The position numbers and the translations under genes are program-made. Below, piece after piece: positions 20,941-64,000 of a stretch of DNA of 64,000 nucleotides (the stretch's first letter is position 1; every line of letters begins with the position of its first letter). This stretch comes from a virus, in the IMG/VR virus record IMGVR_UViG_3300045988_135688; one strand, given 5' to 3'. The notes under the pieces were generated by a model. It was not told the DNA's origin and made no database searches. It worked only from the letters and a program-made list of their open reading frames with translations.

Positions 20941-21000
20941 TTATGGGATTCAGTAGAGGAGCAAAGCCGGGTGCAGAAAACAGAAAAGGAGGAATAAATT

Positions 21001-21291: not shown

Positions 21292-21293
21292 CT

Positions 21294-21841: not shown

Positions 21842-21860
21842 TATAATAAATGATTAAACA

Positions 21861-22347: not shown

Positions 22348-22349
22348 TC

Positions 22350-22721: not shown

Positions 22722-22723
22722 AT

Positions 22724-23371
22724 ATGAAAAAGATATCTTTCAATGATAAATTTGGATTAACACAAGCGGTGTTGGACGGTCGTAAGACTATGACGAGAAG
22801 AATAATCAAATGTCCTAGAACTTTTAAAGGAGAATGGGTTGCTGGATTCAATATACACAGATGCCATTCTGATAAAAAGATTGTTGGCTATCCTTGTATG
22901 TATGATGCTGATGAAAGGGAATTTGATTCGGGAGAAATTATTCCACGCTACAAGGTTGGTGAAGTTGTTGCCATTGCGCAAAGCTATGAAACCATATTTC
23001 ATGTGGGGAATTGCCCTAATGATTTCTTTGTAGATTCATCAACAATTAACAAAAAGTATTGTGGGGCAGGATTTGAAAATAAGATGTTTGTCCGCGCTGA
23101 CCTCATGATACATCATATCCGAATTACCGACATCAAGATTGAACGTTTACAGGACATTAGCGATGAAGATTGCTTGAAAGAAGGGATATATGAAGATTCG
23201 GGTGATGATGAGTTTCCACCATCTATATTTTATGAATTTGAGGGAAACAAAGACGATGGATTTGATACACCCCGTGAAGCCTTTTCAGCCCTCATAGATA
23301 AAGTATCAGGCAAGGGCACATGGGAATCCAATCCTTATGTTTTCGTTTATGAATTTAAACTGATTGATTAA
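22724..23371 (+). CDS. ASCH-like domain protein (tentative)
   Basis: N-terminus KFGLTQAVLDGRKTMTRRI resembles ASCH-type beta-barrel proteins. Confidence 0.4.
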   Translation: MKKISFNDKFGLTQAVLDGRKTMTRRIIKCPRTFKGEWVAGFNIHRCHSDKKIVGYPCMYDADEREFDSGEIIPRYKVGEVVAIAQSYETIFHVGNCPNDFFVDSSTINKKYCGAGFENKMFVRADLMIHHIRITDIKIERLQDISDEDCLKEGIYEDSGDDEFPPSIFYEFEGNKDDGFDTPREAFSALIDKVSGKGTWESNPYVFVYEFKLID

Positions 23372-32395: not shown

Positions 32396-33307
32396 ATGGA
32401 ACAGAAAATAAAGGCTTATAAAGCATTTGATAAGGATTTATCTTGTAGAGGGTTTAAGTATGAGGTAGGTAAGGAATATGAAGAAACAGGCGACATAAAG
32501 GTATGCGAGAAAGGTTTTCATGCATGTCCTTATCCTCTGGATGTTTTTGGTTACTATGCGCCGGCCGGGTCAAGATTTTGTGAGGTTGAGCAGAGTGGTA
32601 AAATAAACGATTCAAAAAGTGACAAGGTTTGTTCTTCAAAAATTAGAATAGGTGCTGAGCTTGATATAAGGGGGCTTGTGAAAGCAGCTGTATCTTATGT
32701 CAAGGAACGGTGTACTAACGAGTGTAATGCGGAACCGGGAAAACCTGCTACGGCTGGTGATAGTGGTGCTGCTACGGCTGGTGATAGTGGTGCTGCTACG
32801 GCTGGTGATAGAGGTGCTGCTACGGCTGGTAATTATGGTGCTGCCACGGCTGGTTATAGAGGTGCTGCTACGGCTGGTGATAGTGGTGCTGCCACGGCTG
32901 GTGATTATGGTGCTGCCACGGCCGGTAATAGTGGTGCTGCCACGGCTGGTGATAGTGGTGCTGCCACGGCTGGTTATAGAGGTGCTGCTACGGCTGGTGA
33001 TAATGGTGCTGCCACGGCTGGTAATAGAGGTGCTGCCACGGCTGGTGATAGTGGTGCTGCTACGGCTGGTAATTATGGTGCTGCCACGGCAAGAGGAAAG
33101 GCTTCAACAGGATCTAATGGTTTGTCAGTAGCAAGAGGAAAAAATGTTCAGGTAAAAGGCGGAATAGGTGCAATTTTGGTCATAGCTGAGGAAAGGGATG
33201 ATACGTATGATATTGTTGATTGGAAGGCTGTAGTAGTTGATGGTGAGGTTGTCAAGGCTGATACATGGTATAGACTGGAAAACGGTGAGTTAGTGGAAGT
33301 TGATTAA
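32396..33307 (+). CDS. octapeptide-repeat (ATAG-x-x-GA x14) protein with globular N- and C-terminal domains
   Basis: ORF track with a direct 24-bp tandem array. N-terminus KAYKAFDKDLSCRGFKYEVGKEYEE..GFHACPYPLDVF. Confidence 0.7.
   Translation: MEQKIKAYKAFDKDLSCRGFKYEVGKEYEETGDIKVCEKGFHACPYPLDVFGYYAPAGSRFCEVEQSGKINDSKSDKVCSSKIRIGAELDIRGLVKAAVSYVKERCTNECNAEPGKPATAGDSGAATAGDSGAATAGDRGAATAGNYGAATAGYRGAATAGDSGAATAGDYGAATAGNSGAATAGDSGAATAGYRGAATAGDNGAATAGNRGAATAGDSGAATAGNYGAATARGKASTGSNGLSVARGKNVQVKGGIGAILVIAEERDDTYDIVDWKAVVVDGEVVKADTWYRLENGELVEVD
32747..33091 (+). repeat. 24-bp tandem repeat, 14 full units plus a partial one (consensus GCTACGGCTGGTGATAGTGGTGCT)
   Basis: Counted directly: 32747 + 14 x 24 = 33083. 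Confidence 0.95.
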
Positions 33308-35816: not shown

Positions 35817-36740
35817 ATGGGAAAAAATTTACTTAACAGCGATGGTAAAATTGCCTTGTTTCATGAAGCTATAAGGCTTGACTTTAATCTGCCCAAATAT
35901 GCCGTTATAGAGCAGAAAGATCCTAATCCAAGTGTAATGTCTTACGATTTCCTAAAACAATACATGGAAAGCAATGACAAGGAAGGAGTGGCGGAATTTA
36001 ATCTTACCGTTTCACCTACAATGCTTGATTCTGTAAAAACAAACCAGGAACACAAGCAAGTAAGAACCTCTCTTCTTGGCATAAACCATAAGGAAAACTC
36101 ATGGTTTAAAAAGATTAAGGATTATGTAGACGAATATAGAAGATCCAAGTTTGACGTAATACATTTCTTTTCTGAGGTGAAGATACAGACAGAGAACGAG
36201 ATGAAGCAATACAGGGATAGAATAAAAGACTATATACTGATGCTAGGTTATGCTGAAAGATCCGGTCAACACGCCTTGAAAGAAAAACTGTTCCGAAACA
36301 TGGTGATATGTAAATACGAAAGCATATTGTTCAGTAAAGGATTATACAAGGCTATATCAGAGGAAAATCTTATGAAGTTTGCAAAAGGATGTCCGAAAAA
36401 TCTATGCCTTGATTACATATCTGACTATACAAGAATCATACCATTTGACATAATTAGGAAAAAGACGGACATAGACAAATATGAAATATTTGATAATTAT
36501 GTCATTCTCCACTACGACTTTGATAACAACGGAACAGATTTATCGTCTGACAAGAAAAAAGAAGAGGTGGAAAAAAGAAAAGACCCTATTCTGTTTGGTA
36601 TTATTGCAGGAAGTAACAAACTATACTTCATAGGTGACTGGATTGACGAGTATTGCGATTTGCGGTTCGATGATGTGGTAAAACAATGCACGGACGATTT
36701 CTTGTCAGAAAACATTTCTTTGGATGATCTTGCAAAATAG
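35817..36740 (+). CDS. hypothetical protein (307 aa)
   Basis: ORF track. Confidence 0.6.
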   Translation: MGKNLLNSDGKIALFHEAIRLDFNLPKYAVIEQKDPNPSVMSYDFLKQYMESNDKEGVAEFNLTVSPTMLDSVKTNQEHKQVRTSLLGINHKENSWFKKIKDYVDEYRRSKFDVIHFFSEVKIQTENEMKQYRDRIKDYILMLGYAERSGQHALKEKLFRNMVICKYESILFSKGLYKAISEENLMKFAKGCPKNLCLDYISDYTRIIPFDIIRKKTDIDKYEIFDNYVILHYDFDNNGTDLSSDKKKEEVEKRKDPILFGIIAGSNKLYFIGDWIDEYCDLRFDDVVKQCTDDFLSENISLDDLAK

Positions 36741-38960: not shown

Positions 38961-39076
38961 TTGTTTAACCTATCGAATATGCCGTTTTATTATTTTTGCA
39001 ACAAAAATATATAACTTATGGAAAACGAAGAAAGAACAATTCAGATTCTCGCTGAAACAATAGATAGGTTAAACAA
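38961..39076. repeat. 14-bp perfect inverted repeat TTGTTTAACCTATC (38961-38974) / GATAGGTTAAACAA (39063-39076)
   Basis: Read directly. It brackets the promoter box and the integrase start codon. Confidence 0.95.
38991..38998 (+). promoter_or_regulatory. -7 box TATTTTTG upstream of the integrase
   Basis: Matches TAnnTTTG, 20 nt before ATG 39018. Confidence 0.4.
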
Positions 39077-40091
39077 GACTATAGAATCACAGAACAGGCT
39101 GATTGAGGATTTAAAAAACAGGCTTGAAACAATTCAGAACGAATATAGCCCTTCAATTATGACTGTAGGAGTATTGATAGAAAAGTTGAATAATACAAAG
39201 ACAAGAAGCGGAAAGGTAAGATTTGAAGCATTATCCAAACATATAATGCCATATCTTACCAATCAGCTTTATGACGAGTATGATTTTAATGATGCCATTC
39301 CTACGTTCAAGGAAGTCCCGTCCGTTGAAAAGCCTGTCAATCGTGACATGATAGATGATATGATCAATGTTATAAAATCAAAGAGAAAGATAAGCGAATC
39401 ATCCCAAAAGGCATATCTTTTAATGCTTAAAAGAATATTGTCCGAATCAAAAGAGATGAGCAAATATATCAATGATTATATTATCTCACTGAACGTAAAA
39501 TCTCCTTCAAATATATCTCTTACGGATGAAGAAATAGAATTATTCTGGAATGTCGAGCCGTTTAACGTTACAGAAAAAATAGTAAAGAAATTGTTTCTGA
39601 TTCAATGCTATACTGCCATGAGATATTCCGATATTTTCAGATTGAAAGATTCTATGATGGAAGGAAATGTTATTTCGTATATATCAAAAAAGACAGGTAA
39701 GAACGTTGAGGTTCCTGTACCTTCCAAGATTATAGAAATGATAAAAGAGGTTAGATCGTTCGATAAATACAACATAGAATCTTCCTTAAAGACTACTATG
39801 AATGAAGTTCTACCAACCCTTGGATGTAGAGCAGGTATAAACAAGCAGGTATTTGTAAGACGGGCAAATGTACTCATGAAAGGGCCGAAGTACCAGTTCA
39901 TCAAAACACATACAGGACGTAGAACAGCTATTACCAGATGGGCTAATATGGGAATACCAGAAGGAGAACTGAAATCTATGGCTGGTCATTCTGATATAAG
40001 AACCACGAACAGATATATTACTGCAAGCGTATCAAATAAAACCAAAAATATTTTAACTGATGGAAATTTTGGAGAATGTGCTGTCAATTGA
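39018..40091 (+). CDS. int: tyrosine recombinase / phage integrase
   Basis: CYTAMRYSDI (box I Arg), HTGRRTAITRWANMG (H-x-x-R), GHSDIRTTNRYI (His...Tyr). Confidence 0.85.
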   Translation: MENEERTIQILAETIDRLNKTIESQNRLIEDLKNRLETIQNEYSPSIMTVGVLIEKLNNTKTRSGKVRFEALSKHIMPYLTNQLYDEYDFNDAIPTFKEVPSVEKPVNRDMIDDMINVIKSKRKISESSQKAYLLMLKRILSESKEMSKYINDYIISLNVKSPSNISLTDEEIELFWNVEPFNVTEKIVKKLFLIQCYTAMRYSDIFRLKDSMMEGNVISYISKKTGKNVEVPVPSKIIEMIKEVRSFDKYNIESSLKTTMNEVLPTLGCRAGINKQVFVRRANVLMKGPKYQFIKTHTGRRTAITRWANMGIPEGELKSMAGHSDIRTTNRYITASVSNKTKNILTDGNFGECAVN

Positions 40092-40464: not shown

Positions 40465-40706
40465 AGATAAAACGGAATTAATTAAAAACGAATTAGAAAT
40501 GAATGATGGAGTTCACTTTGACCAAAATGGTAACGAGGTAATCGTAATCAATGGATTTGAATATTCACGAGAAGAATTTGATTCCCTTGTGAATATATGT
40601 GGAGATTGCAATATATAATAACAAGAAAGTAATGAGTAAAACAACAATTTATTACCTATTCCTAGTAGTAATGTATATGCTGCTAGGATAGGTGGAAAGG
40701 AGAGAT

Positions 40707-41099
40707 ATGAAACATACAGTAGAAGATGCAGCGAAGGAAGCGGCAGAATATTGTTATGAATGCCAATACGATAATAGCTTAGAAATGAGGTTGGTTAAAG
40801 AGGCATTCAGACAAGGTGCCGAATGGCAGTCAAAGCAATCGCCTTGGATAAGTGTTAAGGAACGGTTGCCAGAGCCTAACAAGATTGTCCTTTGCAGAAT
40901 GGTATCAAATGGAGCGATTGTTAGTGGCTATATCGTTGTTTCATCCGGGAGATCGCCATACGTTGCGACAGACGGAGGATTTGAATTTGAGGATTGGAAC
41001 GACTACGAGTGTGACATGTGGATGCCCATTCCTTCTTTCGATGATATACTCGAAGCCAACAAGGATGTGCTGGAACGGATTAAACAGAAAGGAGATTGA
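40707..41099 (+). CDS. DUF551-like protein, paralog of 20545..20940
   Basis: ATG after GAAAGGAGAG. QGAEWQSKQSPWISVKERLPE ... WMPIPSFDDILEANKDVLERIKQKGD. Confidence 0.65.
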   Translation: MKHTVEDAAKEAAEYCYECQYDNSLEMRLVKEAFRQGAEWQSKQSPWISVKERLPEPNKIVLCRMVSNGAIVSGYIVVSSGRSPYVATDGGFEFEDWNDYECDMWMPIPSFDDILEANKDVLERIKQKGD

Positions 41100-41104
41100 A
41101 CGGT

Positions 41105-41311
41105 ATGAAAGTCAAGAACGGAATAATAATAGACGGAGTGCTACATGAATTGCGAGTTGGAATATGTGATGAGTGCTCATTACAAAATGAGTGCGATGAT
41201 AGTTCAGAAATCATTTGCGATATAGCTTACGAAAACCAAAACATGGACCAGTGCTTTGTCAGTCGTGGGAAAATAACAGATATTAAGATAGATAAGGAGG
41301 AAAAGAAATGA
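41105..41311 (+). CDS. small Cys-containing protein; truncated relic copy at 58173-58270
   Basis: MKVKNGIIIDGVLHELRVGICDECS...CFVSRGKITDI; SD AAAGGAG. Confidence 0.5.
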   Translation: MKVKNGIIIDGVLHELRVGICDECSLQNECDDSSEIICDIAYENQNMDQCFVSRGKITDIKIDKEEKK

Positions 41312-41574
41312 AACAGGTATTGTCATTCAAGCAAATGAAGCATTTACAAGAACTTGGATTATACCATATCTACACCTTGCAGGATATTCTCGATAAGCTG
41401 CCTTGCTTTATTGGCAATCAAGTGCTTACCATCCAAAAACTTGCGGATAGCTATACGTGCTTGTATATGGAATCTTATAAGATTACAGAGAGTAAAGAAC
41501 TCATTGATGCAGCATACGATATGTTGTGCTGGTGCATTGAAAACGGATATGTTAAAGTTGGGAAGAAGGAATAA
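41308..41574 (+). CDS. hypothetical protein (88 aa)
   Basis: ORF track; SD AAGGAGG. Confidence 0.55.
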   Translation: MKQVLSFKQMKHLQELGLYHIYTLQDILDKLPCFIGNQVLTIQKLADSYTCLYMESYKITESKELIDAAYDMLCWCIENGYVKVGKKE

Positions 41575-41750
41575 CAATGAAAGCAAGAATAAAAAGAAAA
41601 ATACAAAAAAGACCATTCCTATACAATGTAGGACAAGTTTTTAAGGCTTGTGATTGGCTTACTGAAATTCAGCGTGGAAATATAGTTTGGCATCGGTATC
41701 ATTCATTCGGTACTATTACTAAGCGTTATGTTTAAATAAATGATTAAACA

Positions 41751-42047
41751 ATGAAAGCAAGAGTAAAATCAACAGGAGTTTTGGTAGATGTAACTCCCCA
41801 ATTAAACATCAACTCTCAACATAGCAATGATTATTTATATGTATGTGATAACATGGTTTACAGAGAATGCGAACTTGATTTTTCAGCTATCGACTGGGAA
41901 CAGAGGCGATATGAACTAGCGAAAGCTGCCATGCAAGGATTTTGCAGCAATCCACATGAACAGGTAATGAGTGCTAGTTTAAATATTACAGCAGAATGGA
42001 GTCTTGGTTTCGCTGATGCGCTAATAAAGAAATTAAAAGGAGAATAA
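41751..42047 (+). CDS. hypothetical protein, paralog of 21861..22139
   Basis: See 21861..22139. Confidence 0.6.
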   Translation: MKARVKSTGVLVDVTPQLNINSQHSNDYLYVCDNMVYRECELDFSAIDWEQRRYELAKAAMQGFCSNPHEQVMSASLNITAEWSLGFADALIKKLKGE

Positions 42048-42051
42048 AATT

Positions 42052-42345
42052 ATGACCGAAGAACTTGTAACATTAGAAACAGCAAAGTTGCTGAAAGATA
42101 AAGGGATGTTTATAGATATAGAATTTCCTCCGCAATCCATTGCCCAGAAATGGCTACGTGAAACCAAGAATATTCATATATGTATATACAACTGTGCCTG
42201 TGGTTATGGATACGAAATATCTAAAGCTGACAATGGAACTCATATAGCTAGTTCTGCTTATAAAGGAACAAATGACGGAGGAAAATGGGATACCTACGAG
42301 GAAGCACTGGAAGCTGGAATACAGGAAGCATTAAAACTTATATAA
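42052..42345 (+). CDS. hypothetical protein, paralog of 22350..22721 (shorter centre)
   Basis: See 22350..22721. Confidence 0.6.
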   Translation: MTEELVTLETAKLLKDKGMFIDIEFPPQSIAQKWLRETKNIHICIYNCACGYGYEISKADNGTHIASSAYKGTNDGGKWDTYEEALEAGIQEALKLI

Positions 42346-42384
42346 AAATGAGCCTTAGGTGGCTTTGTAAAACCCATAGAAACA

Positions 42385-50745: not shown

Positions 50746-51072
50746 TTACTCGATAGATGATATGTTTGCTGTTCCCGTAACACTCACCTTGCTTCCCGGT
50801 GTGACTGAAAAATATTCCACCGTTCCTGCCGGGAGAAGCATTCCTGTTGGTGATATTCTGCTTGATCTGCTTTTCGTTTCCTGTACCAATGAGATACGGC
50901 ATCCATCCGATGTCGCTACTCTTATAAGGTTTGACAATGCTGTGTATTCCTTGTCGGTTACATCTTCCGATGCTGATATTCTTGCAGCTACGATACCTTT
51001 TAACGCTTCATCCTTTGAAGCGTTTTTGGTGGAGAAATACCCACCTATCTGTTGTTTATCATTGTTTTCCAT
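50746..51072 (-). CDS. hypothetical protein (108 aa)
   Basis: ORF track; antisense ORF 50735..51148 looks spurious. Confidence 0.55.
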   Translation of the reverse strand: MENNDKQQIGGYFSTKNASKDEALKGIVAARISASEDVTDKEYTALSNLIRVATSDGCRISLVQETKSRSSRISPTGMLLPAGTVEYFSVTPGSKVSVTGTANISSIE

Positions 51073-51415
51073 ATCCTTTCAAGTAAGATTGTTTCACACT
51101 TTCGGCAAACTCGTTCAGCTTTACATAATCCGGGTCAAGTTTGTTTAAAATACCTTTTCTGAGAGCCGCTTCTTCCTCACCGTTGGGAAATTCATCCTTT
51201 ATGGCGGCATCTACCGTTTTGTCGTATGATACAGGGTTCTTTACACGCTGTACATCGGCTTTCCACTTTTTGACGAACTTTTCCTGTACAATATTTCCCA
51301 TATCGTCCGTTTCGGGTTCGTCAACTTGTTCAATGTTTAAATGAACATTGCTATATCCAGTGCCTAAATCAAAGATAAAGGCAGGCTTCTCGTCAAAAAT
51401 CAAACCTCTTTCCAT
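51059..51415 (-). CDS. acidic hypothetical protein (118 aa) immediately downstream of the RT
   Basis: ORF track. Confidence 0.55.
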   Translation of the reverse strand: MERGLIFDEKPAFIFDLGTGYSNVHLNIEQVDEPETDDMGNIVQEKFVKKWKADVQRVKNPVSYDKTVDAAIKDEFPNGEEEAALRKGILNKLDPDYVKLNEFAESVKQSYLKGYGKQ

Positions 51416-51418
51416 AGT

Positions 51419-52708
51419 TTAAATATCTAATGTTCCATCAAAATAATAACCCCTATTGAATTTTATGACAACATCTTCCAATGGTAAAAGGCTTTTGTCT
51501 ACTTGGGAAAGGAATGCTCCTAATGTTTCGTATCCGCCTTTCACAAAGCATTTTTCTCCTTTGAACAGTATCTGCATTCTTACCCATGTACTATTGTCCT
51601 TCTTTGTAGATGGTCTTACATCAAAATCAAGAATGTCTATATGCTCATCGACAAGTTTGTCTATCTTTATATCCTTTCCGTCAAACTTTCTTGACACTCT
51701 TATATTTAAGTCACTAATCTTTGTCATGTGGCTATTATTATTAACTAAAACTTTATTAATTAAGTTTTTAGAATCACAGTGCATCAACATACCCATATAA
51801 CTCGTAATTGATTTTGGGTTATTACGTTTTGACGCAAAGTTTTTCTTTATTCTCTTTCTTATTTTGGTATGACCGGGAGTAAAGACAAATCCACCGAAAT
51901 CTATCCCTTCTGAAACGGGGAATATCCTGTAATTTTTCTTCATCTCCAACTTTTTTTCATACCACAGGTAATTTCTTATCCTCCACAGCCATTCATGCAA
52001 CTGTTTCTTGTCGTGGGATAATATCACCATATCATCGGCAAATCTGAAATAATGCTTTACTTTGAACTGCTCCTTTATAACATGATCCAAAGACCTTAAT
52101 ACCAAATGGCTTCCTATCTGAGCGTCAGGATTGCCAATAGCCAGACCTTTGTTGCTGTAATTAAGCGTATTCATAAGCCATAACGCATCCCTGTCTTTCA
52201 AGTCTTTGCTATATGCCTTCTTGTAAACGCTGTGTCTTACGGACGGATAAAACTTCTTAATATCCATTTTCAAAACGTATATTTTTCCGTTTTTGTCCAT
52301 TTCAAGCAATGTCCGTTTCATCTTTCTCACAAGGGAATGCTTTTTAACCTTACTTGTAATACCCCTTTTGGGCAGACAGTTATATGAATCAAGTGTAAGG
52401 CTTTTTGTCCATCTGTCCATCATGGGTACCAAAAGGCTGTGCTGGATAATCCTGTCCGGGTAAAACGGGAGTTTGTGTATCTCCCTTACCTTTCCTGCAT
52501 CAGTCACTTTCTCTATCACCTCATACTTGCTTACATGGTATGATTTGTCTTTGAGCATCTGATAAACATTCTGATGATATTCATCCTTATGTTTCTCATA
52601 ATCCCTCACACCCCTGTGATTCCTCTTTCCTTTCTTTGCCTTTTCAGCAGCAGAGATAATATTATCCATACTGCCTATCGTTTCAAAAATATTATTCAAT
52701 CTTTTCAT
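51419..52708 (-). CDS. DGR reverse transcriptase (429 aa)
   Basis: RT motifs KVREIHKLPFYPDRIIQH, LKMDIKKFYPS, GLAIGNPDAQIGSHL, YFRFADDMVILS (YxDD-type), GIDFGGFVF. Sits next to a TR/VR pair. Confidence 0.85.
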   Translation of the reverse strand: MKRLNNIFETIGSMDNIISAAEKAKKGKRNHRGVRDYEKHKDEYHQNVYQMLKDKSYHVSKYEVIEKVTDAGKVREIHKLPFYPDRIIQHSLLVPMMDRWTKSLTLDSYNCLPKRGITSKVKKHSLVRKMKRTLLEMDKNGKIYVLKMDIKKFYPSVRHSVYKKAYSKDLKDRDALWLMNTLNYSNKGLAIGNPDAQIGSHLVLRSLDHVIKEQFKVKHYFRFADDMVILSHDKKQLHEWLWRIRNYLWYEKKLEMKKNYRIFPVSEGIDFGGFVFTPGHTKIRKRIKKNFASKRNNPKSITSYMGMLMHCDSKNLINKVLVNNNSHMTKISDLNIRVSRKFDGKDIKIDKLVDEHIDILDFDVRPSTKKDNSTWVRMQILFKGEKCFVKGGYETLGAFLSQVDKSLLPLEDVVIKFNRGYYFDGTLDI

Positions 52709-52867
52709 CTTACGTGCTTTTCTTTGTCCGTTGAGCCAAAGATAACTAACTTTCCATATACCTACAACTGTAAATGTACTAATAAGTTCCCATTCTCAAA
52801 CAATGGGTTGTCTTGACATTTTCCATCTTCCTGACGAGGCTTCTGTATAGCAGTAATTTTTTTTAGC

Positions 52868-52977
52868 ACGTTAGCTGCCACCGATGTTCGTGTTCGCATT
52901 CGAAGGGGCATTGTTCGCATTACCATTCCGCAGAGAACAATTGTCGTTGTCCGACTTACCACCAAAGTAAACACCAC
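52868..52977 (-). repeat. DGR template repeat (TR), 110 nt
   Basis: Aligns with 53151-53260 at an offset of 283 nt. There are 18 mismatches, 17 at plus-strand T (adenines in the sense orientation). Confidence 0.85.
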
Positions 52978-53064
52978 CATTCTACAGACCGCCTTTTTTC
53001 AACTAACCGCCTTTGACAGACTTATTTAACTTTGCTGACGCATTTGGTTAGATTTTTAATTATG

Positions 53065-53072
53065 CAAACTTA
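53065..53072 (-). promoter_or_regulatory. -7 box TAAGTTTG (minus strand) upstream of TR, candidate TR-RT promoter
   Basis: Plus-strand CAAACTTA; lies between the target-gene stop and TR. Confidence 0.35.
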
Positions 53073-53109
53073 AACATTATTAATATATTTTGCAAGTTTT
53101 GGGAGGGGG

Positions 53110-53130
53110 ATTTTTCACTTCGTGAAAAAT
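53110..53130 (-). promoter_or_regulatory. 9-bp perfect hairpin (ATTTTTCAC-TTC-GTGAAAAAT) flush with the target-gene stop codon
   Basis: Read directly. Its right arm ends at 53130, the last base of TAA (53132..53130). Confidence 0.8.
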
Positions 53131-55160
53131 TAGGGTTGGGTTATTGTACAACGAAAGCCGCCACCGATGTTCGTGTTCACATTCGAAGGGGCACCGGACG
53201 CACTACCAAGCCGCAGAGAACAAGAGCCGTGGTCCGACCGACCACCAAAGCAAACACCACGCCTTCCAATCTTACCCGAACCTGCATTTCCCGTAAACCA
53301 GTTGTAATGGCATTCCCCCGTGTGAAGATTGCTTCCCTTGACCTCTCCAATAAGAGAGTTCTTAAAGTTCTTCGTTATGTATCCTTCACCTCTAGCCATA
53401 GAACCGACAAATTCATATGTATTCTCAAAACCGTAAGATTCCCCAGGATTCTTTTCTGTGGCTACATTGTCCGTAGTCAGATTGTTCACGTCATAGGTCT
53501 GATAGATGTCTATGGATGTAGAATCGTGCATGACACAATCTATCCCACTGTACCACATCCATATATCTCCCCACCCGGCAATACGTCCGCGAATGATAGG
53601 CTGTGTGAAGCATATCTCTATTTCACGGTTTGTAACTGCCGCATTGTCAGGAATACTCCATCCGCTAGTTACAGTTGCATTGACAAACTTGGCTACGATA
53701 CCCGACATCTCCCCGTCAGCCAATCCGTTATGACCTTGGAAGTTGTAGTATTTGTATTTTGTGCTTTCATATTCAAACTCGGTGTCGGGAGCGACATTGT
53801 GTTCCTTTGCGTATGACATGGCAAGCTGCGCTTCAAACATCTTCATGCAAGGACGGTAGTTGTTTATAAGCTGTGAAAAATTGTAAGCAGTTCCTGTTTC
53901 TGATGCTTTAAATCCTTGCCCGTTCATCTTGTAATACACATAAGTCTGACCGTCCGCCTTCTTGAATCTGACGCCTGTCATTTTCCCCCAGCTTGACGCA
54001 TCGGGGGCTGAATCGTTGGATGATATTCCTTTTCCGCAAACAGACTGTGCGTGTAGGTCTTTTGTTCTAAACTTAATAAAGAGAAGCGTACACCACACTT
54101 CAAGGTCAAGGGCGAAGGCATTGGCATAAGGATAGTTCTTCGTAATGTCCGGGTTCTTTGCCCTGGCGTATTTCTCAAAATCAAAACGTGATACATTTGT
54201 CGTAGGCCATCCATTTCCTTCCATTATGTTTACGCCTAGATTTCCTACTGATGTTGCTCCTTTTACCGTGTTGTCAAAAATAGATCTCTGCTTCCCATCC
54301 TTTATCGTGGAGTAACCGATACTCATTCCGAACGGTTTTATCTCTATGGCCGTATCGCCACCGTATGTAAACGGAGCGTCACTGACTAGCCTTCTTTCGT
54401 ATGTATCATCCGTTCCTCCGTTGATTATCCAGAAAGGCTTGGTGTTTACAAGCATAATATCGCTTCCGTCATCTGTTACATCAGTTCCGTCAATAACAAT
54501 ATTTGACGGGCTACCGTCAGCCATTTTGAAGAAATTGGTCTGGTCAAGGAATCCTACTACCTTACCGTCCTTTACCTTTGCCGCACGGAAAGAGTTGAGG
54601 ATAGGATGTGATGTCTTGAACTCTTCCTTTCCTATCCATGTCTGAAATACAGGGTCTGTCTGCCCTCTTCTCATCTCCACTCCATATATGTTCCCCTGCT
54701 GCATCTTTATCTGTTCGAGAAGCGTTTTGTAGTCATTGGTGAAATCATTTGTGGATAACTCCTTACCGTCCACCTTGTCTACCTTCTTGTCTAGGGCTGT
54801 TTTCTGTGCGGTGGATACGGGCTTTTCGGCATCGGACGTATTGTCCACATTTGACAGACCTATATTGTCTTTTGTTATATTGACATTTCCTGTCCTGTAA
54901 GACTGTTCGGCATTACCTTTCACGCCTATGACGGTATTCTTCTGTGCGCCTTCCTGTATCCCGTCAAGTTTGGTTTTTAACTGGGTAGTAAAGTTGTTGT
55001 CGGTATGAACATAGTTTTCGTCCATTACCATGCCTTGTCTTATCTTGGACACCGTGACGGATTTGTTCTCTTTAGGGCTTCCCGTCACACATGGTATCAT
55101 CTCTTCTCCCGTAGCGGTCTCAACGGGAGGCATCTGTGAAATTTTAAGATTATCTTCCAT
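53130..55160 (-). CDS. DGR target protein: tail-fibre / receptor-binding protein with C-terminal C-type-lectin-like variable domain
   Basis: 676 aa. N-terminal fibre-like segment (HTDNNFTTQLKTKLDG..., STNDFTNDYK); C-terminal VR. Confidence 0.8.
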   Translation of the reverse strand: MEDNLKISQMPPVETATGEEMIPCVTGSPKENKSVTVSKIRQGMVMDENYVHTDNNFTTQLKTKLDGIQEGAQKNTVIGVKGNAEQSYRTGNVNITKDNIGLSNVDNTSDAEKPVSTAQKTALDKKVDKVDGKELSTNDFTNDYKTLLEQIKMQQGNIYGVEMRRGQTDPVFQTWIGKEEFKTSHPILNSFRAAKVKDGKVVGFLDQTNFFKMADGSPSNIVIDGTDVTDDGSDIMLVNTKPFWIINGGTDDTYERRLVSDAPFTYGGDTAIEIKPFGMSIGYSTIKDGKQRSIFDNTVKGATSVGNLGVNIMEGNGWPTTNVSRFDFEKYARAKNPDITKNYPYANAFALDLEVWCTLLFIKFRTKDLHAQSVCGKGISSNDSAPDASSWGKMTGVRFKKADGQTYVYYKMNGQGFKASETGTAYNFSQLINNYRPCMKMFEAQLAMSYAKEHNVAPDTEFEYESTKYKYYNFQGHNGLADGEMSGIVAKFVNATVTSGWSIPDNAAVTNREIEICFTQPIIRGRIAGWGDIWMWYSGIDCVMHDSTSIDIYQTYDVNNLTTDNVATEKNPGESYGFENTYEFVGSMARGEGYITKNFKNSLIGEVKGSNLHTGECHYNWFTGNAGSGKIGRRGVCFGGRSDHGSCSLRLGSASGAPSNVNTNIGGGFRCTITQP
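53151..53260 (-). repeat. DGR variable repeat (VR) within the last ~43 codons of the target gene
   Basis: See TR. Encodes ...RGVCFGGRSDHGSCSLRLGSASGAPSNVNTNIGGGFRC, and ends with the CLec-type ..IG.FRC signature. Confidence 0.85.
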
Positions 55161-55164
55161 TATA

Positions 55165-56901
55165 TTATTCCGTTAATATTAAACCATCGTTTTCAAGCAA
55201 TATGCTGTATCCATTTTCAGTGATTACGGTATTCCGAAGAACCTCTAGCGTTATCCTTGAATCAGCAAGCTTCCATGAATTGTCAGAAAACGGCATATAC
55301 CCGTCTTTCTTTACAGACAGCGACATCGTGCCATTTGCCATACCCCGTACTTTTACTGTACCGTCAGACAACGTTTTGTACTGTACGCCTCCCACCGTGA
55401 CCGTTGCGTCCTGTATGGGTGAGCCTGATACGTCCACCACCGTTATCGTTACGATAGCCTTCGGTATATAGTAGTCAATCAAATCCTGCTCGGTGAATCC
55501 GTCATTCTGTTTGGTGGGAACTGAATCGAAACCGATGGAGTTGTAGAAAGCTGAACTAATCCATCCGCTATTATGGTCAGTATTGCTAAAGAATACAGGA
55601 GTTTTAGTTTTATCACCTGTCACATCATTGTTTACTATGGTGATTATTTGCTTTTTGTTTAACAAAGCGGAAACTATTGTAGATTCATTCAGTGTTCCAT
55701 CAATATAGGTCTTGCCGTTTGAGTTCCTACTATTATAAGCAATACTACCTTTGTCATTGAATACGGCAAACAGCCAAGGTTCAGTAGTATTCAGTCTTTG
55801 GTCATAGATAAACTTTCCATCAACAAACGGATTAATAGTAGTAAACAACACCTTAACGCCATGCTGTAAGTTCTGTATTTGCCCATAATCATCTACCCCA
55901 TCAGTTACTAGGGCGTTGGGATATCTAGGTATAAACTCTATTGTTACATCCATATCTCCTGTACTTCCTGTAACTCCTATGGCGTTATACAATGAAGTGG
56001 TTCCTTCGGGATAGGTTAATGTCACCTCATGCTCCCCGTTGTCAAAAGTATAAAATCCGCCATTTCTGTTTACCAAACTAACTTGTCTGCCATCAGAAAG
56101 ACCTGTAACCTTAAACTTATGCGTTGGGTTAGAGTTTGCCGGAACTATGTTTACCATGCTATCTGTGGTGGATAGTTTTTTAGTAATATGAATAATTCTG
56201 TTATCTGTAACAGTAACATTTGCTCTATCGGGTAGAATATTAGTGCTAGCAATATCATACCCTCCCACACCGCTCATTGCCGCGAACATGAAATTGTTAA
56301 GTTTCAGAGGTCTGTTGTTTCCGCTATGGTCTTGCAGGTATGGATTGGCTTTTAGTATCTCGTTTGTGGGAACGGATTGTTTTGTAGGTATTTCTTCTAC
56401 CACAATATTGCAATCCACGTCATTCACATTATCACCTGCCAAATAAAATCCATGATAAGATGTGTTTGTTGTGCTACTGTTCCTGTATTCAGGTATGTCA
56501 TATTCTCCATCAGACGTTATCTGAATATTATCATATCCAATCCTTCCTTTAATAGTGAAACCTGTTGGCAATCCTGTTACACGTATTTTATAAGATTCTA
56601 CATATTGTAACGGTTTTACAATTATTTGCCAAAATGCAATATTATTGTTATTTGTAGGTGTATGGGTTATTATACACTTATTTATAGCATTATCATAAGT
56701 TAATTTTCCACCATTGCCAACGAAAAGATTTGCATAGGTAACACCAGGAATATATGTATCCACAGGCTTTGACATATCATACCAAAATACCATATGTTCC
56801 TTAATCCATTTTTCTATCACCTTGTTTATATCGGTTTTTCCTGTACCTGCCGATTTTACAAGTCCAAGTTTTCCTATGTTAAAAAAACCTATCTTTCTCA
56901 T
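55165..56901 (-). CDS. tail-fibre/host-recognition-like structural protein (578 aa)
   Basis: Position between fibre genes. C-terminal Ig/CarboxypepD_reg-like segment VTITVVDVSGSPIQDATVTVGGVQYKTLSDGTVKV. Confidence 0.55.
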   Translation of the reverse strand: MRKIGFFNIGKLGLVKSAGTGKTDINKVIEKWIKEHMVFWYDMSKPVDTYIPGVTYANLFVGNGGKLTYDNAINKCIITHTPTNNNNIAFWQIIVKPLQYVESYKIRVTGLPTGFTIKGRIGYDNIQITSDGEYDIPEYRNSSTTNTSYHGFYLAGDNVNDVDCNIVVEEIPTKQSVPTNEILKANPYLQDHSGNNRPLKLNNFMFAAMSGVGGYDIASTNILPDRANVTVTDNRIIHITKKLSTTDSMVNIVPANSNPTHKFKVTGLSDGRQVSLVNRNGGFYTFDNGEHEVTLTYPEGTTSLYNAIGVTGSTGDMDVTIEFIPRYPNALVTDGVDDYGQIQNLQHGVKVLFTTINPFVDGKFIYDQRLNTTEPWLFAVFNDKGSIAYNSRNSNGKTYIDGTLNESTIVSALLNKKQIITIVNNDVTGDKTKTPVFFSNTDHNSGWISSAFYNSIGFDSVPTKQNDGFTEQDLIDYYIPKAIVTITVVDVSGSPIQDATVTVGGVQYKTLSDGTVKVRGMANGTMSLSVKKDGYMPFSDNSWKLADSRITLEVLRNTVITENGYSILLENDGLILTE

Positions 56902-57149
56902 ATTTCTCTCATTTTAATCCACTCATCAGATAAAAGAAGCTTCTCAAACTCTCTTGTGCCAGTGTCGTATGTGTCGTAAGGGAAAGGGTGTTCCGTTTCG
57001 TCATCCGGCAACGTCATAGGCATCACTTCCATGACCTTCTCGGTATGGATCATATAATACAGACCGTCTGTCGATTGTCTGAAAACGGACAGATCATCTT
57101 CCGAAAACATAATCTCGGCATCTATTTTTGGTACTATGGAAAACTGCAT
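56898..57149 (-). CDS. hypothetical protein (83 aa)
   Basis: ORF track; stop overlaps the next start. Confidence 0.5.
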   Translation of the reverse strand: MQFSIVPKIDAEIMFSEDDLSVFRQSTDGLYYMIHTEKVMEVMPMTLPDDETEHPFPYDTYDTGTREFEKLLLSDEWIKMREI

Positions 57150-57224
57150 ATTATGAATTTTATCTATTATCGCAAAGATAATTAAAAATAGTTAAACGTA
57201 TTGGTTGCATACGGTTTTATGTCG

Positions 57225-57232
57225 TATATTTG
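57225..57232 (+). promoter_or_regulatory. -7 box TATATTTG for the methyltransferase gene
   Basis: Matches TAnnTTTG, 25 nt before ATG 57258. Confidence 0.4.
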
Positions 57233-57257
57233 CTGAAAATTTAAAAAAAACATATCT

Positions 57258-58097
57258 ATGAATGTATTAAGTTTATGTGACGGGATAGCTTGTGGACGTA
57301 TTGCACTAGAAAGAATGGGGTATAGAGTGGAAAAGTATTACGCAAGCGAAATAAATGAACCGTCTATCAAGGTTGCATTGGATAATTACCCCGATATAAT
57401 TGAATTGGGGGATATTAGAAACTGGAACAAATGGAATATACAGTGGGAAGATATTGATTTGCTGATTGGCGGAACACCATGTCAGGATTTCTCACAGTTA
57501 GGGAAAGAGAAACTGAACTTCGATGGCGAGCGTTCGGGATTATTCTTTGAATATGTCAATATACTCAACCATATCAGACAGTTCAATCCTAATATAAAGT
57601 TCATGCTCGAAAACGTGAAGATGAAATCCGATTGGGCTGATTTGATTTCGTCACATCTTGGAGTAGACTATGTGTATATCAACAGTTCCGATTTCTCCGC
57701 ACAAATGAGAGCAAGATACTACTGGTGCAATTGGGAAATACCTGCATGGAAGGACAAGGGAATACTGTTCAAGGACATCATTACGGACGGGTATGTGAAG
57801 AAAGACAAATCATGGTGTATGCTTGAATCATGGAACAGGTTTGCCAAGAACCCCGAATCGTTGTTAAGAAGATATAAAAAATCACTTACACCGTTGATAT
57901 TCAACTCACCCGACTGTAATCCAGAAAAAGGTTTCAGAACGCCCAATATTACGGAAGCAGAAAGATTACAGACAGTTCCCGAAGGATACACCAAGTCGGT
58001 ACAACCACATATAGGCATGGGGCTGTTAGGAAACGGATGGACAGTAGATGTGATTAGTCATATTTTAAAAGGATTAAACAATGAACGCAATAGTTAG
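57258..58097 (+). CDS. dcm: DNA (cytosine-5)-methyltransferase, compact (279 aa), no cognate nuclease seen
   Basis: LSLCDGIACGRIAL (motif I), GGTPCQDFS (motif IV PCQ), FMLENV (motif VI), QTVPEGYT, GNGWTVDVI (motif X). Confidence 0.85.
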   Translation: MNVLSLCDGIACGRIALERMGYRVEKYYASEINEPSIKVALDNYPDIIELGDIRNWNKWNIQWEDIDLLIGGTPCQDFSQLGKEKLNFDGERSGLFFEYVNILNHIRQFNPNIKFMLENVKMKSDWADLISSHLGVDYVYINSSDFSAQMRARYYWCNWEIPAWKDKGILFKDIITDGYVKKDKSWCMLESWNRFAKNPESLLRRYKKSLTPLIFNSPDCNPEKGFRTPNITEAERLQTVPEGYTKSVQPHIGMGLLGNGWTVDVISHILKGLNNERNS

Positions 58098-58150
58098 TCA
58101 TATATTCGCATTCCTTTGCGGATGATCGTTTGTCATACTTGGTGCTATTT

Positions 58151-58270
58151 ATATTGGAACAAAAGGAGATTGAATGGAATAATAGACGGGGTGCTAAATG
58201 AATTGTGCGATGGAATGTGTGTAGAGTGTGATAAGTGCTTTATTAATCGTGGGAAATTAACCGATATTAA
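58151..58270 (+). pseudogene. relic of the early-module junction (DUF551 3' end AAAGGAGATTGA plus 5'-truncated copy of the 41105..41311 gene)
   Basis: AAAAGGAGATTGAATGGAATAATAGACGGGGTGCTAAATGAATTG matches GAAAGGAGATTGAACGG...GGAATAATAATAGACGGAGTGCTACATGAATTG at 41084-41150. The ATGAAAGTCAAG start is missing. Confidence 0.45.
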
Positions 58271-58301
58271 CTCCCCCTTACTGATAAACGGTAAGGGGGA
58301 G
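58271..58301. terminator. bidirectional terminator hairpin CTCCCCCTTAC-N9-GTAAGGGGGAG
   Basis: 11-bp perfect stem between the convergent dcm unit and the 367-aa gene (stop at 58310). Confidence 0.7.
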
Positions 58302-62400: not shown

Positions 62401-64000
62401 AACCCAAACTTGTTATACCCTTCAAGATAATTGCTATTTAAATTATTAACAAGCGTATTGCTTGAAACTATCAACGGTGATAACCCTGTGGCAACAGTTG
62501 ACATAAACCTAGGTGCTCTCACATCATTTGGAGTGACACGTAAAACTAGTTTGTTGTTATGGTCTACGACACCAAATCCTGCACTATCCGTACTACTTCC
62601 TCTAAGGTTTCCTATATACCAATATGTGTCATACCAGTTGAACCTTAACCCGTTTCTTATAGAAGTTAACCCACCATCATCGTTCCTGATAACTCCGTTA
62701 TCCTTGTAGATATTGGTAATATCACAATTTTCCACTCCCTTGAATACGATTGAGCCGGAAGAAGATGCGGAAGTAAGTGTTCCAGTCATAGTATCGCCAG
62801 CCTTTTTCACCCATCTACCGTCCAATACGGAAGTAGGGATATGACTTGCGTCTATGATTTTACTTGAATCAGCCTTTTTCAATTCAGCCCACATAGCATC
62901 AGCGTCAAGTCCTCCCTGCCCAACCATGTCGTACAGTTTCTTTATCGTGTACGCATTAAACGTATTGTCAAGGTCTGAATCGGAGAAGGTTGTGCCGTCA
63001 GTAAGGTTTGCGAAGCTGTACACGGTCTTTATGACACCACTTCCTCCACCAGCACCACCTGTCTGCACTCCAAGAGCCGTAATCCAACCGTCCGAGTAGA
63101 ATCCTACCGTATTTCCGTCTGTTCTATGCTTCACTCTCAGAGCCTTGTTTGCCGAATCGTAAACAAGTTGAGCATCTCCTATCGTAATGGTATTTGTTGA
63201 CACTGATGGTGCTTGAACATTTCCTGCCTTATCAATCCAAACAGCACCTTCCGTATTATTGTGCCCATTAGGTCTTAGATTTATACTTCCATCTCCGAAG
63301 CTAGCTAGTATTGTATGACCGTTTGAATTTCTTAATGCTACATTTCCATCGGGATATGTTATACCACCGTTATTATTGAATACTATATTCTGACTAAACG
63401 TTTTTCTTCCCGAAATAGTCTGAGCAGTAGTCAAGGTAACGGCATCAGTAATTCCGTACCCTGCCAAAGTGGTAGGATTATCACCAACTGTAACACGCCC
63501 GTAGGTGTCTACAGTAACTTTCGTATATGTACCAGCCTTCACCCCCGTGGTAGCTAGTGACAATGTGCGGTTTGCGGACAGGTTTCCACCTCCCGTAAGA
63601 CCATTTCCTGCACTTATCGTTATGGTTTTGTCCGCTTTCAGTGCAAGAAGTTCGGCTAGGTTGTCGCTTTCCGTAAGACCGTCAAGAAACGCTTCAAGTT
63701 CTTTCCATTTGTTGATGATGTTATCGGTATCGCTTCCCTCTAGGAAGTTGTTCAGCTTATTGCTTAACTGTGTTACGGTATTATTCAGCGTACCCAAGTC
63801 CTGTTGTCTAGCGAATGTTTCCCCGAATACGGCAGTAATGGTTTTTCCGTCAGAACTAAGTGCCATGTCTGTTACGGCATTTCCACTCCCCGACTGGGTG
63901 ATGTTCTTTATACCACCACCTTCCTTCGCCATTTTCCAAATCTCGTTTATCGTGTACGCATTAAACGTATTGTCAAGGTCTGAATCGGAGAAGGTTGTGC
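59430..64000 (-). CDS. giant tail-fibre protein with C-terminal S74 intramolecular-chaperone peptidase domain; reading frame stays open to the right window edge
   Basis: GDTMTG fibre repeats (x2), three ..PYQC.STTLN.NLNAD.LDG modules, and C-terminal SSSDIRLKTDI...YHWN...GLIAQDL (S74). No stop between 63933 and 64000 in frame. Confidence 0.8.
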   Translation of the reverse strand, partial: TTFSDSDLDNTFNAYTINEIWKMAKEGGGIKNITQSGSGNAVTDMALSSDGKTITAVFGETFARQQDLGTLNNTVTQLSNKLNNFLEGSDTDNIINKWKELEAFLDGLTESDNLAELLALKADKTITISAGNGLTGGGNLSANRTLSLATTGVKAGTYTKVTVDTYGRVTVGDNPTTLAGYGITDAVTLTTAQTISGRKTFSQNIVFNNNGGITYPDGNVALRNSNGHTILASFGDGSINLRPNGHNNTEGAVWIDKAGNVQAPSVSTNTITIGDAQLVYDSANKALRVKHRTDGNTVGFYSDGWITALGVQTGGAGGGSGVIKTVYSFANLTDGTTFSDSDLDNTFNAYTIKKLYDMVGQGGLDADAMWAELKKADSSKIIDASHIPTSVLDGRWVKKAGDTMTGTLTSASSSGSIVFKGVENCDITNIYKDNGVIRNDDGGLTSIRNGLRFNWYDTYWYIGNLRGSSTDSAGFGVVDHNNKLVLRVTPNDVRAPRFMSTVATGLSPLIVSSNTLVNNLNSNYLEGYNKFGFIHSNYSASTNGAAYVSGDTHIMLIAEIGIDTTYSTYVILLSNEFWGHQHYSALQLHIACTNNDNNGNKTPRCSVNVMSMVGSHARSVYYKVENNKAYIFIKVGGGNQYGRWASTILQNYDSITTNNANTTGNITLRFAFNQANSGLSDASYVNYISSTGLATSRTLWGQSFDGTANVSGNMTGVGSINMSGVLTIKNSTYNKQLIIWSAGSTAKNQGEGILFRCDDATQGVVLRHEWYDTFVPGYGLAVSKHDSLEAGDANMFFYNTGRFIAKAPQGTSPYQCVSTTLNVNLNADLLDGFHAERFLLSVGRSDGTFDLNTYSERAIKEIRTTEQTTNNAPFAGYGLLANLWDSNKFAALQIGGTSADLFFRGKHDGTNKITSAWHRLLHTENYASIADGRYVKKAGDTMTGDLTMNNTKGFNMGWSTRVVKTTGVWIHGGGDAASSTDANLRFGSWYGIGWYPTISGQTVTQGNNAMWLNVRNGNLDTHGAITAHTNYLAANWDSARRLVLGGGSSYAYIDSRNSSNNVLCNIVLEDNKVFIGNYVESSRFVSTVGTGTQPYQCSSTTLNSNLNADMLDNWHLNFLPRNYNIGRCYAVRFALGGEDNGWKKIFACSESGTGPYKSVTVWGRIWYAYGNHAQSEVWNYHFCAIFYMRSGPSSSDSSVGTVENSARLYLPTFAKGMDNIRLVRVGTNNFELQVRQIGSYHNANIEYQYLYYGCNVSAWENLQSTSNTSVAVSAGGASTLADSRASSADVWTTARTFYIQDHNASHTGAGVSVNGSANVYLKLPNSIQCSGWFRSTGNSGWYHQDYGGGIYMQDSAWVRVFGGKRFYVENGDNTDFNAATAISTEGGIYARKNITSSANIIANGAVTAKASSSDIRLKTDIQGYDAMGIIRKFRSVKYHWNAIAKENSEVFNHDNWNYGLIAQDLLSGGYSQWVKDAFNDYYTIDYERLIPVVWKGLQEVDDEVTRLKKRVKELEKRLGINN
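62941..62995. repeat. 55-bp perfect direct repeat, copy 1 (copy 2 = 63946-64000, cut by the window end)
   Basis: TTTATCGTGTACGCATTAAACGTATTGTCAAGGTCTGAATCGGAGAAGGTTGTGC is identical at both places. Confidence 0.95.

Follow-up and report, generated by a model that had tools for sequence, protein, structure and literature searches.

An Avd-less diversity-generating retroelement with a long reverse transcriptase and a conserved spacer RNA in an uncultured human-gut phage

How does a diversity-generating retroelement (DGR) diversify its target gene when no avd gene accompanies it? The question is raised by a cassette in a 64,000-nt stretch of viral DNA (IMG/VR record IMGVR_UViG_3300045988_135688; hereafter, the window), in which a tail-fibre-like target gene, a template repeat (TR), and a reverse transcriptase (RT) gene follow one another on the minus strand. 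The DGR of Bordetella phage BPP-1, with the order mtd-avd-TR-brt, is the experimental paradigm of such elements; avd encodes a basic four-helix-bundle protein of ~120 aa (Pfam PF05635), and no richer reservoir of DGRs is known than gut Bacteroidales phages. The data presented here make us confident that the cassette is a functional Avd-less 'target-TR-RT' DGR of an uncultured human-gut Bacteroidales phage of ~92-99 kb. As a DGR it is ordinary, Avd-less target-TR-RT cassettes having been catalogued in 2018, and it is a clean and very abundant example of a class whose mechanism is an open question, namely how DGRs work without Avd. New here are a covariation-supported spacer RNA, a duplex that brackets the TR, a conserved beta-rich C-terminal domain of the RT, and a cassette-linked small acidic open reading frame (ORF). 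All coordinates are window positions, and features are on the minus strand unless stated otherwise.

Read on the sense (minus) strand, the TR (52868-52977) and the variable repeat (VR, 53151-53260) form an ungapped 110-nt alignment at a constant offset of 283 with 18 mismatches, 17 of which are located at a TR adenine (7 A>G, 5 A>C, and 5 A>T), the sole mismatch off adenine being a C>T change (52896/53179). Adenine occupies 28 of the 110 TR positions, and the hypergeometric probability that at least 17 of 18 mismatches fall on these positions is 8.9e-12. The alignment described in a first-pass annotation made from the sequence alone was thus reproduced exactly, as were its translations of both repeats and its lengths for the VR-TR gap (173 nt) and for the spacer between the TR and the RT start codon at 52708 (159 nt); the same pair was also recovered independently by a general repeat finder (repeat D3). 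The VR corresponds to codons ~634-670 of the 676-aa target ORF, near its C-terminus, and its translation ends with RGVCFGGRSDHGSCSLRLGSASGAPSNVNTNIGGGFRC, followed by TITQP and the stop codon. The TR is non-coding and rich in AAY codons, and it contains an in-frame TAA when read in the VR frame; a mechanical 72-aa ORF lying over it (52762-52980) was not taken for a gene. When the two strands of the window were scanned for further VR copies with adenines masked, none was identified beyond the known VR, the next best match being 38/82.

Scanning of IMG/VR with the RT protein yielded 74 loci with RTs 93-100% identical to that of the window, on contigs of up to 99 kb, from which 72 TR/VR pairs were extracted, including the window's own pair. 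When each VR was compared with its own TR, 1210 of 1259 mismatches (96%) were found at TR adenines and 49 elsewhere. The 72 loci contain 67 distinct VRs versus 15 distinct TRs, and positional entropy of the VR is high only at positions where the TR has an adenine. Lineage-specific non-adenine changes of the TR (sense positions 60, 61, 71, 75, and 80) reappear in the cognate VR, and information therefore flows from TR to VR. Among eight genomes carrying exactly the TR of the window, the mean pairwise divergence computed for each region was 0.4% in the 1 kb upstream of the VR, 0% in the VR-TR gap, 0.3% in the spacer, and 0.9% in the RT gene; within the VR, it was 1.2% at non-adenine sites versus 63% at the 25 adenine sites. 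The VR is thus hypervariable only at TR-adenine positions, while the TR and all flanking DNA are stable in the phage population, and both the confinement of polymorphism to these positions and the stability of the TR within lineages agree with what the first-pass annotation had expected of a DGR. Divergence confined to VR adenine sites is the signature of an active DGR, and these comparative data establish adenine-mutagenic TR-to-VR transfer by a DGR RT. The fraction of TR adenines substituted per VR is ~60% overall and 63% among the eight genomes with the window's TR, which is comparable to the ~50% of adenines changed per event reported for BPP-1 and for chromosomal Bacteroides DGRs (bioRxiv 10.1101/2024.11.15.621889). 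A>G and A>T substitutions are about equally frequent, and both exceed A>C.

Direct repeats beside fibre genes are common in phages, and the pair could in principle represent a partial gene duplication or a silent gene-conversion cassette, with no retroelement involved and an adenine bias that arose by chance. For this genome by itself, however, the chance of such a bias is ~9e-12, the 72 loci show it again (96% of the 1259 mismatches), independent relatives display the same bias, and a DGR-type RT is encoded directly downstream. The TR/VR statistics and the population data effectively refute this explanation, to which we assign practically no weight.

A second explanation, that the DGR is decayed or inactive and that the TR/VR differences are relics of past activity or of inter-strain recombination, draws some support from the fact that assemblies only were compared and from one locus (L041), the TR of which itself contains many adenine-site changes. 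Genomes with an identical TR nevertheless differ at 63% of the VR adenine sites over a flank divergence of 0-0.9%, the 74 loci have an intact RT ORF with 93-100% identity, the TR has retained its adenines everywhere except in a single one of the 72 loci, and, as described below, the spacer RNA is conserved with compensatory changes. Decay is accordingly regarded as highly improbable. In the exceptional locus, the TR (5732-5841 of L041) has only 20 adenines and differs from all the other TRs by approximately nine adenine-site substitutions; either a mutagenised cDNA homed into the TR or the assembler mixed VR and TR. In each of two other loci (L020 and L059), the first 20 nt of the VR contain a cluster of nine non-adenine mismatches, reflecting either a shorter 5' boundary of the VR in these loci or recombination in the target gene.

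The 17 adenine-site changes do not all behave alike in the population. The actively varied zone spans sense positions 10-93 (53168-53251) and contains 25 adenines, whereas the changes at sense positions 102, 106, and 107, where the TR bases are A, A, and A, are near-fixed in the VR (G in 69, T in 72, and T in 68 of the 72 loci). The adenine-site changes given in the first-pass annotation all stand as differences, but the three at the 3' end behave as essentially fixed across loci rather than as actively mutagenised. By comparison with BPP-1, these last three differences read as a fixed difference of the type that distinguishes the initiation of mutagenic homing (IMH) site from IMH*, and not as ongoing mutagenesis. 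The 3' ends that carry the three-base difference are GGCGGCTTTCGT in the VR and GGCAGCTAACGT in the TR; the corresponding features are an IMH-like VR end (TCGGTGGCGGCTTTCGT, 53151-53167), encoding ..GGGFR, and an IMH*-like copy in the 3' 17 nt of the TR (52868-52884). The repeat 3' end is G/C-rich and conserved in relatives, with the three VR-versus-TR differences fixed, and a fixed A>G and A>Y pattern at this end recurs in distant relatives. The fixed VR bases read as both preserving the Gly-Phe-Arg motif of the protein fold and marking the recipient copy, a role suggested by analogy with the BPP-1 IMH.

The RT (51419-52708; 429 aa) is of the DGR kind and intact. It matches Pfam RVT_1 and phrog_1423, and in a phmmer search of PDB sequences it was much closer to the RT of BPP-1 (bRT, 8ub7; E 3e-21, identity ~23%) than to the best group II RT (E 6e-6). 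Its AlphaFold2 (AF2) model has a predicted local distance difference test score (pLDDT) of 93, and the best Foldseek match is 8ub7_A (template modelling (TM) score 0.87, E 5e-20), with DGR RT (bRT) entries at ranks 1-4 and the RTs of the group II, G2L4, DRT9, and retron kinds below them. Sequence and fold thus both group the protein with DGR RTs and not with those of group II introns or retrons, as the DGR assignment had presupposed. The NCBIfam library, which has no DGR model, gave only sub-threshold group II, retron, and Drt matches to the RT, and these were not counted as evidence. The catalytic FADD is present, and the motif expected to read IGxxxSQ is LAIGNPDAQ here and LPIGNxLSQ in relatives. 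Public gene calls start the RT at Met14 (416 aa); the alignment with bRT begins at residue 2 of the 429-aa ORF, and the upstream ATG at 52708 is therefore a likelier start than the downstream Met.

Whereas bRT has 328 aa, the RT described here contains, after a core of approximately residues 1-320, ~105 extra C-terminal residues (~322-429) modelled as a compact beta-rich domain. Related DGR RTs that are 415-460 aa long conserve this domain at identities as low as 35%; its profile matched no PDB or Pfam sequence, the domain alone not having been fold-searched. The nearest annotated RTs, those of the crAss-like phages cr50_1 and cr10_1 (39-40% identity), are of a short form and cover only residues 1-306 or 1-312. 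The closest genome-borne RT relatives are found in Bacteroides, Phocaeicola, and Prevotella, and in IMG/VR a relative of the RT is encoded on ~150 stretches.

The target gene (53130-55160) encodes a 676-aa tail-fibre-like receptor-binding protein with a predicted C-terminal C-type-lectin-fold domain that contains the VR. PHROG tail-fibre families match residues 37-158, the top BFVD match, at 99% identity, is to a fragment of 'Myoviridae sp. ct04y17' named 'Receptor binding complex', and further BFVD matches include crAss-like tail and tail-collar fibre proteins (cr7_1, cr55_1, and cr6_1 among them); the N-terminal matches and the BFVD names, 'receptor binding complex' and 'tail collar fiber protein', bear out the tail-fibre label given to the gene at first. 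Pfam and NCBIfam contained nothing for the C-terminal domain and a PDB sequence search with the target was empty, and the fold was therefore taken from AF2 and Foldseek. The AF2 model has a pLDDT >90 for residues 155-676, and the top Foldseek match in the PDB is TaqVP (5vf4; probability 0.98-0.99, E 5e-4), followed by Mtd. The modelled target has the fold of DGR variable proteins, in line with the C-type-lectin ending proposed from the VR translation. Its 90% cluster contains >6000 member sequences.

No ORF fits into the 173-nt gap between VR and TR, and sequence-level Pfam searches for Avd (PF05635) or HRDC revealed no match in the cassette neighbours or in 55 small and mid-sized ORFs of the window. 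The absence of Avd and the length of the RT had been put forward as atypical features of the cassette, but neither is new. In the survey of Wu et al. (2018), 26% of DGRs are without avd, Lineage 3 is wholly without it (3A being confined to Bacteroides and relatives), and ~20% of all DGR RTs carry a C-terminal extension of unknown function; profile searches of the genomes that contain avd-less cassettes detected no avd elsewhere, and an Avd-independent mechanism was concluded (PMC5758913).

The DGR might alternatively depend on an Avd-type protein supplied in trans, either from the ~30 kb outside the window or from the Bacteroidales host. The window comprises 64 kb and related contigs 92-99 kb, Bacteroides chromosomal DGRs encode Avd-like proteins (bioRxiv 10.1101/2024.11.15.621889), and the BPP-1 RT is inactive without Avd (bioRxiv 10.1101/2023.10.23.563531), all of which would accord with such a dependence. 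We nevertheless consider it unlikely, given the lack of an Avd Pfam match in the 55 window ORFs, the result of Wu et al. that no avd occurs elsewhere in genomes with avd-less cassettes (PMC5758913), and the presence of the same Avd-less cassette, with long RT and spacer RNA, in unrelated phage backbones and prophages.

Evidence for a structured RNA between TR and RT came from distant long-RT relatives, which were obtained via RTs of 37-59% identity (L077-L082) or via homologues of the small ORF described below (L083/L084 and L086). An adenine-biased TR/VR pair of its own was present in each of the distant relatives examined (L077-L082, the hankyphage, cr50_1 with its short RT, L083, and L086). 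The TR-RT spacers of the distant long-RT relatives share a clear motif, and RNAalifold applied to the spacer alignment predicted two helices, P1 and P2, with compensatory changes. A covariance model built for the element (R1) located it in 18 loci, including Bacteroides, Phocaeicola, and Prevotella(ceae) genome contigs, in each case between the TR and the RT start codon and immediately 5' of the latter. In P1 and P2, 98.7% of cells are paired and 9 of 10 pairs show double changes, values to be read with the reservation that the alignment was fitted to the model and so leans towards pairing; none of 500 shuffles reached the observed score, and slid controls gave <=0.12 versus 0.69. No Rfam family matches the spacer. 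R1 misses the hankyphage, cr50_1, and L081, and the motif therefore marks a subclade. A first pattern scan of viral contigs for the spacer, which was too strict, returned 0 matches, and the matches to a looser pattern were mostly due to chance, R1 matching only 4 of 77 pattern loci from other contigs.

In the window, the spacer RNA extends over 52723-52854 and consists, in the 5' to 3' direction, of the 3' strand of a further helix, H0 (52837-52847), P1 (52824-52836), an A-rich linker (52808-52823), P2 (52789-52807), the element CUUAUUAGUA (52777-52786), a variable hairpin P3 (52755-52776), GAAAGUUAG (52746-52754), and CAACGGAC (52726-52733). The 5' strand of H0 (AGGCGGTCTGTA, 52983-52994) is located on the other side of the TR, ending 5 nt before it, and pairs with the strand just 5' of P1, so that the duplex brackets the TR. 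In 11 lineages, 92% of the H0 cells are paired and 8 of 10 pairs are compensatory, the alignment having been curated by hand from duplex predictions and thus likewise leaning towards pairing; none of 1000 shuffles reached the observed value, the best attaining 75%. The H0 sequence is wholly different between lineages, the upstream strand and the spacer strand being TCTGTA and TACAGA, CTCAT and ATGAG, CCCGC and GCGGG, TTGATAGGTG and CACCTATCAA, or TATGCTGT and ACAGCATA. In arrangement, not in sequence, H0 and the spacer helices parallel the 'stop duplex' and the post-TR stem-loops of the BPP-1 ribonucleoprotein (RNP), and the published conservation analysis of those BPP-1 structures covered only Avd-bearing DGRs (bioRxiv 10.1101/2023.10.23.563531). 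A TR:spacer priming duplex noted by eye (TR CUAAC with spacer GUUAG) fails in L079 and L086 and is not claimed.

These elements suggest an answer to the question posed by the missing avd, namely that the role of Avd may be taken over by the C-terminal domain of the RT together with the conserved spacer RNA. In its specific form, which we advance tentatively and with somewhat less than even confidence, the conserved ~105-aa domain and the spacer RNA would constitute a self-sufficient one-protein, one-RNA RNP that replaces the Avd pentamer of BPP-1, the RNA contributing the TR-bracketing duplex, P1, the A-rich linker, P2, CUUAUUAGUA, P3, and GAAAGUUAG. If true, such a DGR would achieve adenine-mutagenic, self-primed cDNA synthesis by a different and simpler mechanism, and a single-protein DGR would be an attractive compact tool for targeted protein diversification. 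The spacer RNA, the TR-bracketing duplex, and the RT C-terminal domain provide concrete, mutable elements with which the question of Avd-less DGRs can be addressed.

The small acidic ORF (51059-51415; 118 aa, isoelectric point (pI) 4.8) begins 3 nt after the RT stop codon. Homologues occupy one of two places in 8 of 11 long-RT DGR lineages, directly following the RT in L077, L083, L086, and L078 and lying between target and TR in L079, L080, and L082. They are always found beside long-RT DGR cassettes and are ~107-118 aa in size, or 185 aa with a weak full-length DUF4376 match (members: L077:6951-7301, L079:5338-5664, L080:5252-5578, L082:5292-5615, L083:7001-7348, and L086:7001-7558). An exhaustive HMMER search with the family identified only 45 representative clusters in 1.84 billion proteins, tblastn of the 118-aa ORF against phages returned nothing, and the family is absent from Pfam, its only PHROG match being a weak one (phrog_11557, function unknown). 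The ORF that follows the RT in the hankyphage matches DUF4376 above the Pfam cut-off, and DUF4376 marks an experimentally shown tail-fibre chaperone of Alteromonas phage V22 (PMC7289586, PMC10579305). The 118-aa protein thus probably serves the target fibre, as its chaperone or partner, and not the RT as a cofactor; as a replacement for Avd it was set aside as the leading reading in view of its acidic pI of 4.8, the DUF4376 matches in longer relatives and in the hankyphage counterpart, and its shifting position. If it is a fibre chaperone, the TR-RT unit is here inserted between a fibre gene and its chaperone. Another ORF (50746-51072; 108 aa) was considered as a relative of the 108-aa ORFs that lie between target and TR in L079 and L080 and was rejected, no similarity being found.

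Three further features of the cassette bear on how it might be expressed and how its target might be recognized. A hairpin with a 9-bp stem and a GAA loop (53110-53130) begins with the final base of the target stop codon, at a distance of 20 nt from the VR; it folds at -6.2 kcal/mol (z -5.85), and none of 200 shuffles folds as well. In relatives, this place is occupied by other hairpins, with weaker statistics (z -3.3 in L083, not significant in L086 and L077). The structure is a candidate DNA hairpin or cruciform that aids target recognition, or a candidate 3' structure of the transcript. In the VR-TR gap, which is nearly invariant among close relatives, a promoter had been proposed; a Bacteroides-type -7 box (TAAGTTTG, 53065-53072) is indeed present there as a candidate promoter of a TR-spacer-RT transcript, though as a consensus match only. 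A scan for sigma-70 promoters and terminators detected nothing relevant, which is no surprise in a phage of Bacteroidales. Another -7 box of the Bacteroides type (TATCTTTG, 52737-52744, minus strand) is located inside the spacer RNA, 29 nt upstream of the RT ATG, and may be a separate RT promoter or a coincidence.

By analogy with BPP-1, the cassette could operate as follows. A transcript initiated in the VR-TR gap would cover the TR, the 159-nt spacer, and probably the RT gene; the H0 duplex (52983-52994 with 52837-52847) and P1-P3 would fold this RNA around the RT, and the folded RNA would position the 3' end of the TR for self-primed cDNA synthesis and set the point at which synthesis stops. 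The RT would copy the TR faithfully except opposite adenines, and the cDNA would then replace the VR, the direction of transfer being set by the three-base difference between the repeat 3' ends and possibly by the hairpin that follows the VR. The outcome would be up to 4^25 (~1e15) DNA or ~5e14 peptide variants of the ligand-binding face of the fibre, leading to shifts in host range. The element implies continual retargeting of the receptor-binding fibre in a prevalent human-gut phage.

Several points weigh against our reading of the cassette as a functional Avd-less DGR, in addition to the two alignment biases mentioned above. The window represents approximately two-thirds of the genome, and an Avd or a second VR could lie outside it. 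The TM-scores of the target model to TaqVP and Mtd are low (0.22-0.41), the match being to the C-terminal domain only. The RT shows minor departures from the expected motifs, with alanine in place of the motif-4 serine (IGNPDAQ) and FADD in place of YxDD. Activity is deduced from variation between genomes in assemblies, and we infer, rather than observe, the priming site, the promoter, the role of the hairpin, and that of the RT C-terminal domain.

Compared with known systems, the cassette resembles the BPP-1 DGR in its adenine-specific TR-to-VR mutagenesis, the location of the VR (the 3' end of a gene for a receptor-binding tail fibre whose fold, here predicted, is of the C-type-lectin kind), the fixed difference, putatively of the IMH/IMH* type, between the repeat 3' ends, the hairpin shortly after the VR, and the fold of the RT (TM 0.87 to 8ub7_A). 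Unlike BPP-1, whose Avd-dependent cassette is of architecture B, it has no avd gene that could be found between target and TR or in the window, its RT is ~100 aa longer owing to the beta-rich C-terminal domain that the 328-aa bRT does not possess, its spacer RNA is unrelated at the sequence level in both sequence and helices, and its hairpin has an A/T-rich stem and a 3-nt loop. The target-TR-RT order without avd is that of Architecture A1 in Lineage 3 of Wu et al. (2018), with the caveat that a small acidic ORF follows the RT here, and the tail-collar-fibre-type target and the human-gut Bacteroidales setting are shared with Lineage 3 and crAss-like DGRs (PMC7290462, PMC5758913). The crAssphage LMMB DGR, for example, has a TG-VR-TR-RT order (TG, target gene) without avd and an RT assigned to Lineage 3 (PMC7290462). 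The likeness of the present cassette to Lineage 3 is one of gene order and absence of Avd. It differs from crAss-like DGRs in that the best-matching crAss-like RTs are short and the cr50_1 spacer is undetected by R1, and the phage backbone is not crAss-like in gene content (primase, helicase, and integrase).

The hankyphage (Bacteroides phage p00) shares with the window a Bacteroides host, an adenine-biased TR/VR pair, the order VR, short gap, TR, ~200-nt spacer, and RT, and an ORF immediately after the RT; its 434-aa RT aligns over residues 1-385 of the RT described here with 28.6% identity. Differences include a far larger target (its VR is at residues 2188-2225), a 64-aa ORF between VR and TR, a post-RT ORF that encodes a DUF4376 protein and is not a detectable member of the small acidic family, and a spacer RNA undetected by R1. 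Chromosomal Bacteroides DGRs, which act on type V pilus tip adhesins, are similar in host clade and in the C-type-lectin fold of the VR, in addition to the fraction of adenines changed, but they encode Avd-like proteins, and some also Msl, and diversify bacterial pilins instead of a phage fibre.

The phage itself has no annotated close relative among GenBank phages, nucleotide searches with window regions 51000-56000 and 25001-50000 yielding trivial matches only. A closely related phage contig (L085), the flanking genes of which are 92-100% identical, is without a ~6.9-kb block (compared with window 51100-58300) that contains the RT, the TR, the target, a 578-aa ORF, an 83-aa ORF, and a DNA methyltransferase gene. 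At the junction, a chimeric 112-aa ORF combines a paralogue of a 367-aa gene with the last ~30 codons of the 118-aa ORF. The lineage can therefore do without the module formed by DGR and target, which varies among its members; as a test for the 118-aa ORF in a phage without a DGR, the contig is uninformative, the deletion ending inside that ORF. A tyrosine-integrase-like ORF is present on the plus strand (39018-40091; phrog_1), and the closest genome-borne RT relative is found on the chromosome of a Bacteroides metagenome-assembled genome (L084/L206), which together suggest that phages of this group can be temperate.

Other features of the window lie outside the cassette. A full-length match to HEARO RNA (Rfam RF02033; 92 bits, above the gathering score) was identified at 697-881 on the minus strand. 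HEARO RNA is associated with IscB/HNH-type IS200/IS605 elements. PHROG 'transposase' ORFs are found elsewhere (29681-30895 and 35817-36740), and an ORF at 32396-33307, encoding a phrog_4433 protein of unknown function, contains ~14-20 tandem 24-nt units that specify an 8-aa repeat (32673-33152, plus strand). Collinear direct repeats of 74-94% identity, located ~20 kb apart in 20540-22730 and 40700-42350 (D2, D6, D8, D9, D11, and D17), point to the duplication of a block of small genes. Two identical 55-nt direct repeats occur at 62941-62995 and 63946-64000, spaced by 1005 nt; one of them runs to the end of the window and the other is contained in a 1500-aa tail-fibre ORF, and the pair may represent an internal repeat of the fibre gene or an artefact of the assembly end.

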